Shown here one piece after another: positions 28,496 to 31,921 of a stretch of 64,000 bases of DNA. The DNA is from Candidatus Marinacidobacterales bacterium (lineage in GTDB: Bacteria > Acidobacteriota > Vicinamibacteria > Marinacidobacterales > SMYC01). The notes below the pieces were generated by a model. That model was given only the letters and a program-made list of their open reading frames with translations, was not told where the DNA came from and did no database searches. Location of the stretch: assembly GCA_965224085.1 (NCBI GenBank), contig CBDCYI010000011.1, positions 736,001 through 800,000 on the forward strand. The letters run 5' to 3'. Within the stretch, counting starts at the first letter, position 1. Each line of letters opens with the position of its first letter. The translations under genes and the position numbers were made by a program.

Positions 28496-28507
28496 GACGC
28501 GCGCTTG

Positions 28508-28577
28508 ATGTCACTTGCTGCCGGCTCCCGCCTCGGCTCTTACGAGGTGGGCTCTGCGATCGGTGTCGGTGGTATGG
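28508..28577 (+). pseudogene. Ser/Thr protein kinase 5' fragment cut in the Gly-rich loop by the IS110 element
   Basis: MSLAAGSRLGSYEVGSAIGVGGM|, matching the RLGxYEI...GxGGMGEVY start of Hanks-type kinases. Confidence 0.85.
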
Positions 28578-28592
28578 ACTCCCCACGCCGGA

Positions 28593-29888
28593 TCAAGAGA
28601 AAACCTTCTTCGTAGGAATCATCGTCGATTCGCTTTTTGTTGTGGACGTCCGCGAGGGGTCGTAAAGAGTTCTTTGTCGAAGCATCGCCATGGCGATGGG
28701 TAGAATGCGGTCCATGACGCCTCTGAGAGCTCTGGCATGGCTGTGGCCCGCGTCGCGAAGCCGATCGTAGTGCTTTTTAAAGTGTGGGTCGCGAAGCACG
28801 GCAGTGCTGGCCCAATGATGGAGAGCGTTATTGAGGGGCAAAGAGCGAGCTCTCCTCATCAGGATAGTTGGTCGCAACTGACCGCGCTTGCCGCTTTTTT
28901 TCGTGACGGGTGCGATGCCGCTGAGAGTCCTGAAGGCTTTGAGATTTCGTAGCCGAATGGGGTCGTGGGCATAGCAGAGCACGGAGGCGAGCACGTAAGC
29001 ACCGACGCCGGGCAAAGAGGCAAGAATGGCAGCGTCGGAGCACTGCTTGTCGTTCAGTGCTTGCAAGCGCTTGAACCACTTCTCGAGATGCTGGTCGGAG
29101 GCACGACGATGTTGTCGAACGAGGAGCAACTGCTGAAGGAGCAGTTCGAGATGCTCAGAAGTAGCTTTGGTGGTTGCATGCGCGACTCGGAGTGGTTTTT
29201 GATTGAGGGTATCGAGGATCTGCTCGGGTTTTACGCGTCGGATGCGGTGTTTTTTAACGAGCGTCTCGATGGTGTGGCGGCTAAGAGAGTTGGGGCTGGA
29301 TTCGAAGAAGAGTTTTAGGAGCTCGCAGAAAAACGCGTCGAGAGCCTTATTCTTTGGCGCGAGCGAGACGAGGTGAGGCCAACAACGAGTAAGGAGTTCT
29401 CGGATCTGCGAGCTGAGGGCAACGTGGTTTTTGACAAGTTGGTCGCGGGTGCTCAACAGCCCGCGCATAGCAAGGATCTCCGGAGGTGGAAGTTGCAAGC
29501 GCTGAAAGCGGTGACCGTCGGTTCTGAGCGAATCGGCGAGAACGAAGGCGTCGCGCCGATCATCCTTGGCGCCGCTCATAGAATGCCGGTCGCGGAAACG
29601 GTCGACCTGCTTGGGATTGATGGAGAAAATGGCGATGGCGTTGTCAAGAAAGAGCTCGACGACGGCTCCATGAGGCTTTTCGATCGCCACTGCGATGCGC
29701 TCGGTGTCTTGCGTGGTCAGTTCCAGAAGCCAGCCGATCGTTTCTGAAAGTCCTTCGCGGCTATGAGGAAAGCCGCGCTCCCCCATAAATTGTCCCCTGG
29801 TATCGACCACGCTGGCCAAGTGAAGCCATTGGCCCAGGTCGACACCGACGAAGAAGTCGTAGTCGAGCTGATTCCTGGAAGAACTCAT
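28593..29888 (-). CDS. IS110-family DEDD recombinase/transposase (431 aa)
   Basis: FVGVD, AIEKPHG, AKDDRRDA (DEDD) and GIAPVTKKSG (catalytic Ser); stop lies inside the inverted repeat. Confidence 0.95.
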   Translation of the reverse strand: MSSSRNQLDYDFFVGVDLGQWLHLASVVDTRGQFMGERGFPHSREGLSETIGWLLELTTQDTERIAVAIEKPHGAVVELFLDNAIAIFSINPKQVDRFRDRHSMSGAKDDRRDAFVLADSLRTDGHRFQRLQLPPPEILAMRGLLSTRDQLVKNHVALSSQIRELLTRCWPHLVSLAPKNKALDAFFCELLKLFFESSPNSLSRHTIETLVKKHRIRRVKPEQILDTLNQKPLRVAHATTKATSEHLELLLQQLLLVRQHRRASDQHLEKWFKRLQALNDKQCSDAAILASLPGVGAYVLASVLCYAHDPIRLRNLKAFRTLSGIAPVTKKSGKRGQLRPTILMRRARSLPLNNALHHWASTAVLRDPHFKKHYDRLRDAGHSHARALRGVMDRILPIAMAMLRQRTLYDPSRTSTTKSESTMIPTKKVFS

Positions 29889-30083
29889 TGCCGTCAGCGC
29901 ATGTGATGTTTCATCGGCCCCTGTACCGGCGCTCGAAGCGCAACTCCCCATTGGATGTCCATCACAAGAAAATTGCCGGCACGCGTGTCCATACCGGGCG
30001 CTCGGAGCGCAGGGCGAAGTATGGCGTTGCCGGCAAGCTGCTGACGAAATCGAAAATAGTTCAAGCTCATCGTGAGATTTGCT
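29889..30083 (-). ncRNA. Putative bridge RNA (target-binding and donor-binding loops)
   Basis: Nested stems (29892-98/30040-46, 29973-81/30028-36, 29902-08/29960-66), two gcgct-N3-agcgc hairpins; loop segments match the junction (GGTATGGAC) and the element end (TGGGGAGT). Confidence 0.85.
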
Positions 30084-30500
30084 CTACCACTGCAATCGAA
30101 GCTGGCGCGCGATGCCACCAGCTCGTGCTGGTTTTTTTCTCGGTTGTTTCGGGCGAAGCACGTCTGCGAGTTTTTCTCGAAGGTAGCGAACATAAGGCGG
30201 GTCTAGATATTCACTTCGCACTTCCTCGAGCACAGGTGAAAAATAGCGAAGGGAGCGAATGGGTTGTAGTGGCTCCTCATGCTCTTGTAGCTCCCGACGA
30301 GCGCAACCCAGAAGTAGGGCGCACTCGAATTCGTATAACGGGACGCCCTGGCGGTAGAGTCGCGTCGCCATGAAGCGATCGTCGCGCCGTGGTCGCTCAG
30401 GTGTGTTCGGAATAGAAACATAGATATCCAAAACCGCCCGGACATAATCGTTTTCTGTTAGAGCGTCGCTCGTGAGCGGTTTATCACTGAGCTTCGACAT
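30084..30500 (-). CDS. IS110 accessory ORF B, hypothetical (138 aa)
   Basis: GGAGG RBS, overlaps the upstream ORF; YVRAVLDIY...IRSLRYFSPVLEEV. Confidence 0.75.
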   Translation of the reverse strand: MSKLSDKPLTSDALTENDYVRAVLDIYVSIPNTPERPRRDDRFMATRLYRQGVPLYEFECALLLGCARRELQEHEEPLQPIRSLRYFSPVLEEVRSEYLDPPYVRYLREKLADVLRPKQPRKKPARAGGIARQLRLQW

Positions 30501-30889
30501 CCATCCACCTCCCGCGTCCGCCGCAGATACAGCATTTGGCATATCCGAAACTGTCAAGCTTCGTTTTCATTGAAAGAACCATCGAGCTCCGTGACCGGAT
30601 CTGTTCTCTGATTCCTACATTGCCCGAGTTACCGACGTGAATGGAACCATGATCCGTTACTTTTTCTTGGTGTCGTCGATACTCACGTTGCCGGTCCGCA
30701 CAATCTCGACTGTCCTTCGACACTTTCTCGATCTTTGCGGTTGTAGCCGCGACACTTTATTAGGCCGGCATGATAAGAGCACGCTTTACCGCAGTAGCAG
30801 TGTCCACGGTCACAGCTCTTGCAGATGTAGAAGGCCTCTGAACAGTTACGACAAAAACGCTGGTACACAACGACTGGTTTGGTGGCCAT
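30484..30889 (-). pseudogene. IS110 accessory ORF A, Cys-rich putative Zn-binding protein with a 1-nt frameshift
   Basis: CRNC...ICKSCDRGHCYCGKAC; removing one base near 30710 continues RDCADRQREYRR...VTDHGS...CCICG. Confidence 0.7.
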
Positions 30890-30947
30890 TTGAGACTCAG
30901 CAAGCGCTGGACTATGGCGTTTTCTCTTGATCCGGCGTGGGGAGTCC

Positions 30948-31921
30948 ATTCCGTACGGATCCTCGTGATGGTACTCGAGCCGGTTGCGCTCGGGACATCG
31001 TCTGCCGTCGTGCGCGACAAACGTGCACTGTCCCCCATCTCGCACCCATACGAAACGTTTCACCGCGGCGGCGATGCCGCGCACACCCGGTGACGTGTCG
31101 GCGTCTTCGACATTCGTTCTCGGGTTCTTCGTTTTACCGAAACGCTTGGCTTCGAGCCGCTCGAGCTTTTCGCTCACCGCCGCGTCGATGACCGAAGCGA
31201 GGTCACTACCGGGAATGAGCGCCTCGAGTCGTTCGAGTTTGTCGCGAAGCTCGGCGCTCGCCGTGAATGTTACTTGATAGCGCGCCGGTGATAGCGGCGC
31301 CACGGTCGGACGTTTTTCAGGTGCTGTCTCACGTGCCTGTGGCGGCTCATTCTCACCCGGCTCACCCGGCTCACCCGGCTCACCCGGCTCACCGTGCGCC
31401 TCTGCTCTTTCTTCACGTTGCTCGTCCGACGGCTTGGAAGGCTTGGACGATCCGGACTGGGCTTTCGGTTGCGGCTTCTTTCGAATCTTCGGTGGAACAT
31501 CCGGTTTCGGAGCCCATTCCGCCACGAGCTCTTCGAGCTCGCGTTTGCTCTTGTGAGTGGCTCTTGCCAAGACCTCTTCGCCATTGGCCTCGGTGAGATG
31601 TTTCGCGATCACGGCGATGCCACACAAGTGAAGGCGTCCATCCTCGAGCATTGTGAGAAGCGCGGGAAATCTGCGTGATAGCCGGGCGGCGGTGATTCGC
31701 CGATAGGCTTGCGCTTCCGATAAATGCAAAACGTCCAAGCAAAAGCGGAACATGGACGGCGCGGCTTCGCGAGCAAAGAGACGACGCGCATCGACCGCAG
31801 CGATATGCGCGACGAGCACGGCCTCGCGACACCGCGACTCCTTGAGGGCGTCCGATAGTCGAACAAGAAGCTCGTCATCCGATAATGCTGAGAGCCATTT
31901 CAATGTGTCCTTTGTAGTCAT
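30948..31921 (-). pseudogene. DUF222-like/HNH endonuclease truncated inside the HNH motif by the IS110 end
   Basis: LSDDELL...LSEAQAYRRI...VWVRDGGQCTF...RC....LEYHHEDPYGM|. Confidence 0.85.
31352..31393. repeat. 9-bp tandem repeat (ctcacccgg)x4.7 encoding GEP
   Basis: Direct read of the sequence. Confidence 0.9.

Follow-up and report, generated by a model that had tools for sequence, protein, structure and literature searches.

The element described here occupies positions 28574–30949 of a 64,000-nt stretch of the genome of a Candidatus Marinacidobacterales bacterium (contig CBDCYI010000011.1), called the window throughout. Coordinates are positions in this window, and the minus strand is the orientation of the recombinase gene. 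Judged from its sequence, the DNA is a truncated and rearranged copy of an IS110-family bridge-RNA element of ~2.6 kb, whose predicted bridge RNA would direct insertion into the codons of a conserved kinase motif. The 31-bp perfect inverted repeat that brackets the copy is best read as a fragment of a second, inverted copy, and so as the scar of a rearrangement and not as a terminal repeat of the element. Good confidence is placed, taken together, in what the element is, in its RNA and target, and in where the inverted ends come from; it does not extend to the function of the accessory genes. Upstream of the RNA the element carries two small open reading frames (ORFs), ORF A and ORF B, that recur with a shared leader in other elements.

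All of the genes of the element lie on the minus strand. The inverted match is real sequence and far beyond chance; a self-comparison of the window gives 34 nt at 97% identity (28571–28604 against 30919–30952), of which 31 nt are perfect (28574–28604 against 30919–30949), as a preliminary description of this DNA had reported. The same description placed the stop codon of the recombinase inside the inverted repeat, and it is indeed found in the left arm (28593–28595). It also gave the order as inverted repeat (IR), ORF A, ORF B, non-coding RNA (ncRNA), recombinase and IR on a single strand. The gene order, the single strand and the internal RNA upstream of the recombinase stand, while the IRs are not the ends of the element. 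In both arms the outer ATGG is derived from the target, comprising Met-Gly codons, and its GG is the duplicated core.

The element is repeated within its own genome (12 contigs, 6.87 Mb), which was searched by BLAST with both full-length types. The window type is 2,607 bp in length and is represented by one full copy, the window copy (positions 263–2607 in the recombinase orientation) and two partial copies, all 99.8–100% identical. A variant of 2,644 bp with 85% identity is present as four full copies and four that are partial or internally deleted. All of the other copies align with the bracketed region over its positions 1–2345 only (window 28574–30918), and its last 31 nt match nothing else in the genome save the left arm in reverse. 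Past position 2345 the five full copies compared share ~262–300 bp more, ending in …GCGTACAGG or …GCAAGCGTACAGG. The full element, read in the recombinase orientation, comprises a left end with a structured leader of ~290 nt, ORF A, ORF B, the bridge RNA of ~190 nt, the recombinase and a right end (RE) of ~20 nt. The RE is kept as …TGGGGAGT|CC in 16 of 18 metagenomic right ends.

The flanks of the copies are of one predominant kind. On the recombinase side the flanking DNA encodes G-x-G-G-M at 7 of the 11 own-genome ends; of the remainder, one lies in a DUF222/HNH-like gene (…HHEDPYGM), two are at other coding sites (…SGDM and …FMADKM) and one is at an apparently non-coding site. The word GGNATGG is found at 9 of the 11. 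In three of the five full copies (L002, L003 and L005) the kinase reading frame resumes after the left end, for example as EVYKAKDTRLDRTVAIKVL (EVYKAKD…, VVYRAKD…), and the remaining two are located at non-kinase sites. A second rearranged copy was also seen in the genome (L007, at G000 C4:1482115-1483633). It is partial (positions 1089–2607), starts just upstream of the bridge RNA, and is flanked by a kinase N-terminus in antisense on one side and by the middle part of a kinase (…LNHPNIITIHD…) in sense on the other.

Could the 31-bp arms nevertheless be genuine terminal repeats of a new architecture, a hybrid of the IS110 and IS1111 groups? The repeat is perfect over its length and brackets all four features of the element, and subterminal inverted repeats (STIRs) are mentioned for the IS1111 group (Durrant 2024, PMC11208160, section 12). 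The reading is nonetheless extremely improbable, and for the family it is refuted by sequence comparison. The second arm is absent from all other copies in the genome, five of which are full, and from 19 foreign right ends (18 metagenomic loci and L115, a relative in another genome). The full copies end ~262–300 bp further on, at sequence matched by the right donor guide of the RNA. The gene beside the right arm is moreover another one, met at a word like the target, which is what an independent insertion would give. The preliminary description's view that long perfect inverted ends belong to the design of the element is not borne out. Long perfect 'terminal repeats' around a member of a repeat family may be rearrangement scars, and should be annotated with caution.

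The right arm matches the RE of the 85%-identity variant over 32 nt, with one base in common at the junction, and the right target guide of the variant is GGAAUGG, the same word as at the break of the DUF222/HNH-like gene. For these two reasons the second copy was probably of the variant type. At the join (30918/30919) the first copy breaks off after its position 2345 and is followed by position 31 or 32 of the inverted one. The 3′ halves of the kinase gene and of the HNH gene are absent, as is almost the whole second copy. The second copy, probably of the variant type, would first have inserted at GGAATGG in the DUF222/HNH-like gene; later a deletion or other illegitimate join would have fused position 2345 of copy 1 to the last 31 nt of copy 2. 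The simplest reading of the cause is a deletion between two copies with their left ends facing each other, though this is inferred. Exchange of cores at GG/CC-like pseudo-sites was considered as the cause and rejected, since the sequences do not fit; the event was classed simply as illegitimate joining, at a point where the homology is no more than 1 nt.

What counts against this history is that the join comes from the assembly sequence. The assembly has 12 contigs, and the element occurs in it, whole or in part, at least 12 times; repeats invite mis-joins, and the junction might be a chimera of two repeat copies. There is a slim chance that this is so. The join lies outside common sequence, with at most 1 nt shared, which is unusual for errors of repeat collapse, and 10 of 24 sequencing runs contain at least half of the words sampled from 30500–31300 (best 0.90), a hint only, as words were sampled. 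The gene at the right arm has a Pfam match to DUF222 (E = 4e-4) that lies under the cut-off. Within it four tandem 9-bp units CTCACCCGG are found at 31352–31396, encoding the run GEPGEPGEPGE on the minus strand.

The recombinase is a member of the IS110 family. In Pfam it matches the full profile of DEDD_Tnp_IS110 (PF01548) over residues 35–192 (E = 5.7e-30) and Transposase_20 (PF02371) over residues 308–395 (E = 2.9e-11). In NCBIfam it scores 161.6 bits with NF033542, 'IS110 family RNA-guided transposase', for which the cut-off is 140. Its sequence includes VGVDLG, AIEKP and AKDDRRDA, which we take to contain the D-E-D-D residues. An SG word (…VTKKSGK…) lies within the Transposase_20 match, and its serine is presumably the catalytic one. 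The element thus unites the hallmarks of the family, comprising the DEDD domain, Transposase_20, a two-loop ncRNA (by sequence), a short CC/GG core and site-specific insertion, with no terminal IRs. The left non-coding end is longer than the right, the RNA lies upstream and ends 0–10 nt before the start of the recombinase, and the RE is ~20 nt in length. The layout of the IS110 group is a long left end that holds the RNA and a very short right end (Durrant 2024, PMC11208160, section 12). The element is atypical of that group in one respect, that its left end holds two genes. Features of the IS1111 group were sought as a long right end with a downstream RNA and as subterminal IRs. No inverted repeat is present in the full copies, and there is no space for an RNA downstream of the recombinase, because its stop codon lies within the last 31 nt. 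The mixture of IS110 and IS1111 layouts claimed in the preliminary description disappears with the false repeat. By its sequence the layout is that of the IS110 group, with a left end extended by a leader and two genes and nothing mixed in from IS1111.

Between ORF B (30084–30500) and the recombinase lies a non-coding spacer of ~200 nt, which is better conserved between the two variants than are the surrounding genes. Folded alone it forms two stem-loop modules inside a closing stem, with a minimum free energy (MFE) of −75.7 kcal/mol. The predicted core comprises a target-binding module and a donor-binding module, each with an inner hairpin. From its sequence it is identified as a bridge RNA with two internal-loop modules, whose guides match the target and the ends of the element itself. 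The four guide words are a left target guide (LTG), a right target guide (RTG), a left donor guide (LDG) and lastly a right donor guide (RDG); they occur in that order at positions 33, 55, 100 and 124 of the RNA. In each loop the 5′ side is identical to the top strand and the 3′ side is complementary, as in the published rules, in which the 3′ side is complementary over 4–7 nt with the core included (Durrant 2024, PMC11208160, sections 6–7). The RTG is followed by AC, which may pair with the GT of the RE in a handshake-like manner. When the 162-nt core was shuffled 20,000 times by dinucleotides, no shuffle contained all four words together; singly they occurred with frequencies of 0.0009, 0.0018, 0.0042 and 0.065. 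A search with the Rfam covariance models over the full copy L002 and its flanks gave no match at E ≤ 1.

The structure is supported by an alignment of 31 versions of the RNA (those of the window, the variant and 29 metagenomic loci). The proposed 39 base pairs in six helices are paired in 96.7% of the cells, compared with 22–40.5% when the partners are slid. Compensatory changes occur in four of the pairs (15 cells), a level reached by none of 500 shuffles. RNAalifold recovers the first module unaided, and mis-pairs the guide words of the second. The donor guides also vary together with the ends of the elements. The RDG GUACAGG accompanies CC|TGTAC at the left end, and GUAUAGG accompanies CC|TATAC (L045, L046, L047 and L049); the RDG agrees with the left end in all 13 elements in which that end is visible, L115 included. 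Similarly the LDG GGGGAGU accompanies GGGGAGT|CC at the RE, and GGGAAGU accompanies GGGAAGT|CC (L047 and L049).

A number of observations weigh against the bridge-RNA reading. The z-score of the MFE for the single sequence is just −1.85, and the covariation is thin (4 of 39 pairs), the stems being highly conserved. Locus L050 breaks the agreement between LDG and RE, and the LDG pairs uncleanly with the core, placing UG opposite CC. The LTG matches individual flanks at its fixed positions only, and the ends, processing and transcription of the ncRNA are inferred. A search with the Rfam covariance models over the full copy L002 and its flanks gave no match at E ≤ 1.

The target GGNATGG|GCGARGT, also written GGNATGGGCGAGGT, comprises the G-M-G-E-V codons of Hanks-type kinases, which belong to their glycine-rich ATP loop. 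The LTG and RTG match the two strands of this site, written …ACYTCRC-CC-ATNCC… as the antisense of GGN ATG G|GN GAR GT. Across the 31 RNAs the guides vary at the free codon positions of G-M-G-E/D-V and nowhere else, the LTG reading AC-N-TC-N-CCC and the RTG GG-N-AUGG; the variation of the LTG among the relatives is located at codon third positions. Because the guides vary only at the third positions of the G-M-G-E-V codons, the element appears to follow a protein motif across paralogous kinase genes, a natural RNA-guided insertion aimed at conserved coding sequence. All of the foreign flanks translate as kinase …I-G-x-G-G-M | G-E-V-Y…. The six fixed positions of the RTG match the flank in all 19 foreign loci with a visible right flank, and the variable position forms a Watson–Crick pair in nine of these, a wobble pair in three and a mismatch in seven. 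In the window's own genome the fixed positions match in 8 of 10 and the free position in 6 of 10. Eight unoccupied GGNATGGGNGANGTNTA sites are present in this genome, against 0.2 expected from base composition. Insertions at non-kinase sites preserve the RTG half of the target better than the LTG half, in keeping with the tolerance of a 'half-match' that two preprints of 2026 describe (10.64898/2026.08.14.744561; 10.64898/2026.08.31.748434). Literature searches on IS110 with kinases, Hanks or glycine-loop gave no report of kinase-loop targeting among the listed titles.

By analogy with IS621, a tetramer of the recombinase with the bridge RNA would join a circular form, in which the RE is linked through CC to the left end (LE) (RE-CC-LE, …GGGGAGT-CC-TGTACGC…), to …ACYTCRC-CC-ATNCC…. 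Insertion would interrupt the kinase after the Met codon, duplicate the core and leave the element antisense to the kinase. The RE carries TTGATC (TTGACA or TTGACC in relatives) 15–16 nt before the core, and the left end begins with TGTACG or TATACG. Because of these two words a promoter is possible at the circle junction; the junction could rebuild a sigma-70-like promoter, from which the leader, both ORFs, the RNA and the recombinase gene would be read. Rebuilding of a promoter at the circle junction has been reported for IS621 (Durrant 2024, PMC11208160, section 5).

Table 1. Features of the element copy and its flanks in the window, in order of position. Assignments of RNA parts and of gene fragments are predictions.
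Feature	Position	Strand	Remarks
Ser/Thr-kinase gene, 5′ fragment (…LGSYEVGSAIGVGGM)	28505..28577	+	Ends in target word GGTATGG
Target-derived ATGG; core GG	28574-28577; 28576-28577	+	G-x-G-G-M flank, as in 7/11 ends
Element right end (RE) (…GGCGTGGGGAGT)	28578..28604	-	Holds recombinase stop codon and TTGATC -35-like word
IS110-family DEDD recombinase	28593..29888 (listed ORF to 29951)	-	431 aa from MSSS; likely start 29888
Bridge RNA core	29888..30049	-	Closing stem, target-binding and donor-binding modules, each with inner hairpin GCGCUnnGAGCGC
RDG GUACAGG	29920..29926	-	Reverse complement of CC + TGTAC of left end, which is kept in full copies only
LDG UGGGGAGU	29943..29950	-	Equal to last 8 nt of RE
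RTG GGUAUGG	29989..29995	-	Reverse complement of CC + ATACC; matches the window's own flank GGTATGG
LTG ACUUCGCCC	30012..30020	-	Antisense of GGGCGAAGT (codons G-E-V) + core; top-strand left target plus CC
ORF B, 138 aa	30084..30500	-	Predicted five-helix protein; invariant motif IRS.(R)YF.P
ORF A, C-terminal remainder, other frame (…VTDHGS…CCICGGRG)	30484..30723	-	Stop overlaps ORF B start
ORF A, N-terminal fragment, 68 aa, Cys-rich	30683..30889	-	Frame change relative to intact homologues of 134-137 aa
Last 29 nt of conserved leader upstream of ORF A	30890..30918	-	Remaining ~262 nt of left end gone in window copy
31-nt RE fragment of second, inverted copy ('right inverted repeat')	30919..30949	+	
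DUF222/HNH-like gene, 5′ part (…LEYHHEDPYGM)	30950..31921	-	Broken at target-like word GGAATGG

The two accessory genes are conserved well beyond the window. Eighty metagenome loci were collected by way of ORF B, and these fall into two layouts. The first has the order ORF A, ORF B, a spacer of ~200 nt and an IS110 recombinase that is 58–94% identical to that of the variant copy. In the second, ORF A and ORF B bracket IstA and IstB, the neighbours being recognised as rve + Mu-transpos_C_2 (IstA) and IstB_IS21 (IstB). Two of the latter loci (L091 and L092) share an IS21-like unit of 3,278 bp, 99.7% identical in two contexts, that encloses A and B, and in another (L078) inverted repeats of 43 nt (TGT…ACA) surround both ORFs. 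The preliminary description had mentioned such proteins beside IS21-like elements, and the A–IstA–IstB–B loci, the shared unit and these repeats agree with it. The flanks of the IS21-type carriers are non-kinase. One carrier (L091:1-694) is inserted in another IstB-like gene, its left flank being of AAA+ IstB type.

A second IS110 lineage (L086 and L096–L098), with a recombinase 26% identical to that of the variant copy (L098), has the same A–B–RNA–recombinase order and the same kinase target, and its RNA contains the donor words of this lineage itself, CAGATGT|CC and CC|CTATAG. In the recombinase tree, whose A/B-bearing rows were collected via ORF B and the others via the recombinase, those with A/B fall into a single clade of 19 (support 100/100) and, apart from it, L096/L098. 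The tree needs two changes for A/B, and a single origin may underlie them.

A search of the genomes of the taxonomic order that began from the recombinase gave matches in 11 of 55 genomes, of which only three have a recombinase at least 62% identical. All three have ORF A and two also have ORF B. The third locus (L115) lacks ORF B and has a stop in its recombinase gene. Neither A nor B is present in 22 loci at ≤49% identity, nor in 12 loci at ≤44% identity from five other genomes of the phylum sample. L115 itself (L115:1476-3486, in genome G337 of the same family as the genome of the window) is a relative of ~2.0 kb with a recombinase 62% identical and an internal stop; its bridge RNA follows directly after ORF A, and its flanks are both halves of a kinase glycine loop.

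A leader upstream of ORF A is common to all three kinds of element, with CATCATC-type words, a GC-rich hairpin, and GTCCAR near the start. The hairpin, RRCCCCGRYYG…CRRYCGGGGYY, lies 121–145 nt before the start of ORF A. It is found in 41 of 46 loci, and the other five have a compensated CCTCGG/CCGAGG form that the pattern missed; further compensated variants are CCGG, CCGA/TCGG and CCAA/TTGG. Leaders were seen at L002:3815-4107 and in L017, L075-L092, L097, L098 and L112-L114. In the IS21-type leaders the hairpin lies between runs of A and T, like a two-way terminator. The type-I (IS110-type) leaders also hold words like their own junctions (GGATGG, AGTACAGG and GGCCATNGTCC). The leader being shared, the comparison suggests that leader, ORF A and ORF B were taken over by the IS110 clade from an IS21-like element, or the reverse.

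On this evidence the leader hairpin, ORF A and ORF B are described as a portable accessory module, present by sequence in two IS110 lineages and in IS21-like elements. Two features of the sampling tell against so general a statement. The association is biased by collection of the 80 loci through ORF B, and the unbiased sample of the clade comprises three genomes, two of which have broken recombinases. IS110 elements are also known to acquire varied cargo through flexible, half-matched boundaries (10.64898/2026.08.14.744561), and A and B might be chance cargo of one lineage, like that of the cargo-bearing IS110 loci of 2026. The frameshift of ORF A in the window lineage and the loss of ORF B from L115 would be in keeping with that. 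Such an origin is very unlikely, however. Recombinases 58–94% identical, and the lineage at 26% as well, have one and the same pair beside them, with its gene order and leader hairpin unchanged; the ratio of non-synonymous to synonymous substitution (dN/dS) of the accessory genes is below 1 (0.21–0.75); and the pair is found inside IS21-like elements. Proteins in which the two are fused also exist. With this conservation, the sharing of the module between the IS110 clade and IS21-like elements implies that A and B are no chance cargo. The preliminary description had named absence of A/B from close recombinase homologues as the finding that would refute a multi-gene system; the gene neighbourhoods and the search begun from the recombinase place them with those homologues, so that refutation fails.

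In the window lineage ORF A is split by a one-base frame change near 30710–30712. The overlap of ORF A with ORF B noted in the preliminary description exists; the overlapping piece is a separate-frame remainder of ORF A (30484–30723), while the listed ORF A is just the 68-aa N-terminus. Intact ORF A has 134–137 aa, with conserved cysteines C13, C18, C25, C28, C35, C39, C122 and C125, and is predicted to be a Zn/Arg-rich protein with an Arg-rich helical hairpin and a VTDQGS motif. ORF B is predicted to form five helices (pLDDT 81), with invariant A61, L64 and R68 and the word I-R-S-x-x-Y-F-x-P. At E ≤ 0.001 its profile has matches in 1,732 representative proteins, of which 968 reach E ≤ 1e-10. 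Natural fusions with ORF A at the N-terminus and ORF B at the C-terminus are known in four proteins of 246–283 aa (P0135, P0150, P0157 and P0158). In two mosaic elements (L035/L036) ORF B and the recombinase are 89–94% identical to the variant copy (L003), and ORF A is 52% identical and window-like; this suggests from the sequences that an ORF A segment was exchanged between the variants.

Comparison with known families gave little for either protein. ORF A, ORF B and their fusions have nothing above the cut-offs in Pfam, NCBIfam, PHROGs and PADLOC. ORF A has no sequence-profile match in the PDB, and its best Foldseek hit has E = 2.5; superposition on DUF1470 (3h0n) gives a root-mean-square deviation of 2.2 over 41 columns and is non-significant (E = 5.3). 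Considered as a CGNR/NinG-like zinc-binding protein it has no significant match, the fusion P0135 reaching E = 0.0092 against NinG, under the cut-off; one atlas neighbour of ORF A auto-named NinG-domain at 0.92 is a lead only. ORF B has one chance sequence-profile match in the PDB (E = 0.56) and a best Foldseek E of 1.3, and its atlas neighbours are all unnamed. Prediction of a complex of ORF A with ORF B gave a score of 0.00 and a mark of 0.32, which is no evidence either way. In one IS21-like group (L015:3662-4414, L016, L101, L103, L104 and L106) the ORF B domain makes up the C-terminal half of a protein of 250 aa, whose N-terminus has weak matches, below the cut-off, to HTH_36 (E = 0.0015) and to a phage replication initiator (E = 0.026).

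The existence of the natural fusions suggests that ORF A and ORF B would act as one unit. They may be a nucleic-acid-binding pair acting on their own leader or operon, so controlling expression or processing of the transposition genes, a proposal that is preferred here and given somewhat less than an even chance. Possible regulatory or directionality factors, as suggested in the preliminary description, are likewise conjectural. Binding of nucleic acid is a guess founded on the Cys/Arg content, the weak HTH_36 fusion (E = 0.0015, below the cut-off) and the position of the genes. A role as selectors of the kinase target was considered and rejected, as the IS21-type carriers sit in non-kinase sites. 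The window lineage, with its frameshifted ORF A, occupies four sites at 99.8–100% identity, and L115 has no ORF B, so that neither protein appears to be strictly needed in cis. It is possible that ORF A is supplied in trans by the intact variant in the same cell.

The main alternative is that the pair handles the transposition intermediate, biasing excision or formation of the circle, or recruiting priming or replication to a single-stranded circle (IS110) or to the strand-transfer product (IS21). The leader hairpins would then be the site of ORF A/B, and roles could include excision bias, second-strand synthesis and replication restart. Recombinase and RNA by themselves are reported to excise inefficiently (PMC13626964), and one preprint proposes that excision yields a single-stranded circle (10.64898/2026.08.31.748434). 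That two transposases of different mechanism carry the module points to a step common to both. The Zn/Arg-rich nature of ORF A agrees with this, as does the fusion of the ORF B domain in some IS21-type loci to an HTH_36-like N-terminus with weak replication-initiator matches. Every one of these similarities is below significance, however; DNA or RNA binding by A and B is conjecture, and it seems that the window lineage spread although its ORF A was broken. The proposal is considered fairly unlikely.

ORF A and ORF B are small, often overlap, belong to no known family and are carried by mobile elements, all of which also calls to mind a selfish or addiction module (toxin–antitoxin-like or anti-defence) that rides on transposons together with its leader and has no role in transposition. 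Yet in the IS21-type elements A and B are 2.3 kb apart with istAB between them, which is unusual for a toxin–antitoxin pair; a toxin and its antidote would hardly be expected to be fused in a single polypeptide; and there is no PADLOC match. This is an improbable account of the pair.

Taken at its broadest, the leader hairpin with ORF A and ORF B might be a previously undescribed portable helper system, adopted both by an RNA-guided DEDD recombinase and by the DDE transposase IstA/IstB; this is possible, though distinctly doubtful. If true, the module would control a step that recombinase and RNA perform poorly alone, either making or processing the excised intermediate or switching on the operon from the circle junction. 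The IS110 subfamily would then be a natural multi-component bridge system with protein cofactors, aimed at the G-M-G-E-V codons of kinases. Bridge recombination is usually treated as a two-component process of protein and RNA, and ORF A and ORF B provide a concrete, testable candidate for its protein cofactors. The natural excision and regulation of bridge elements are an open question (PMC13626964).

IS110 elements with extra genes in general have been described since August 2026 (10.64898/2026.08.14.744561); a term search of the main text of that preprint turned up neither IS21 nor kinase nor zinc. Among the titles listed by literature searches there was none on a conserved protein pair in IS110 or on such a pair shared with IS21, and among those listed for IS21 no description of such extra genes. 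What appears to be new here is the conserved accessory module in an extended left end combined with a protein-motif target; otherwise the element belongs to the IS110 family by every tested feature of its sequence.

The element resembles IS621 and the IS110 group in its DEDD and Transposase_20 domains, its upstream two-loop ncRNA and the rules of its guides (Durrant 2024, PMC11208160), and in its 2-nt core, its lack of terminal IRs, its very short right end and its sequence-specific insertion (PMC11208160; Hiraizumi 2024, PMC11208158). It differs from IS621 in the placing of the RNA, which lies ~1.1 kb from the left terminus, with a leader of ~290 nt and two genes between, whereas that of IS621 lies directly behind the terminus. 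It is also longer (2.6 kb compared with 1.2–1.5 kb), and its target is a kinase glycine loop instead of REP-like repeats. With the 'expanded' IS110 loci of Hu et al. (10.64898/2026.08.14.744561) it shares a length above 2 kb, extra genes and half-match tolerance at boundaries and off-target sites. The cargo of those loci is variable, plasmid-derived and enriched in resistance genes, whereas here the pair and leader are clade-wide and common to IS21-like elements.

The IS1111 group has the same recombinase family and likewise inserts into conserved multi-copy sequence. Members of that group have a downstream RNA and subterminal repeats, with targets such as transposon ends and attC; in the present element the RNA is upstream, the right end is ~20 nt in length and the full copies have no subterminal IRs. 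The ATGGAC word at the end of the window element consists of target ATGG and element AC, and is no IS1111 repeat. The IS21 carriers have the same module of leader, ORF A and ORF B, and have TGT…ACA ends. In them A and B bracket istAB and the sites are non-kinase, whereas the window element is without IstA and IstB.

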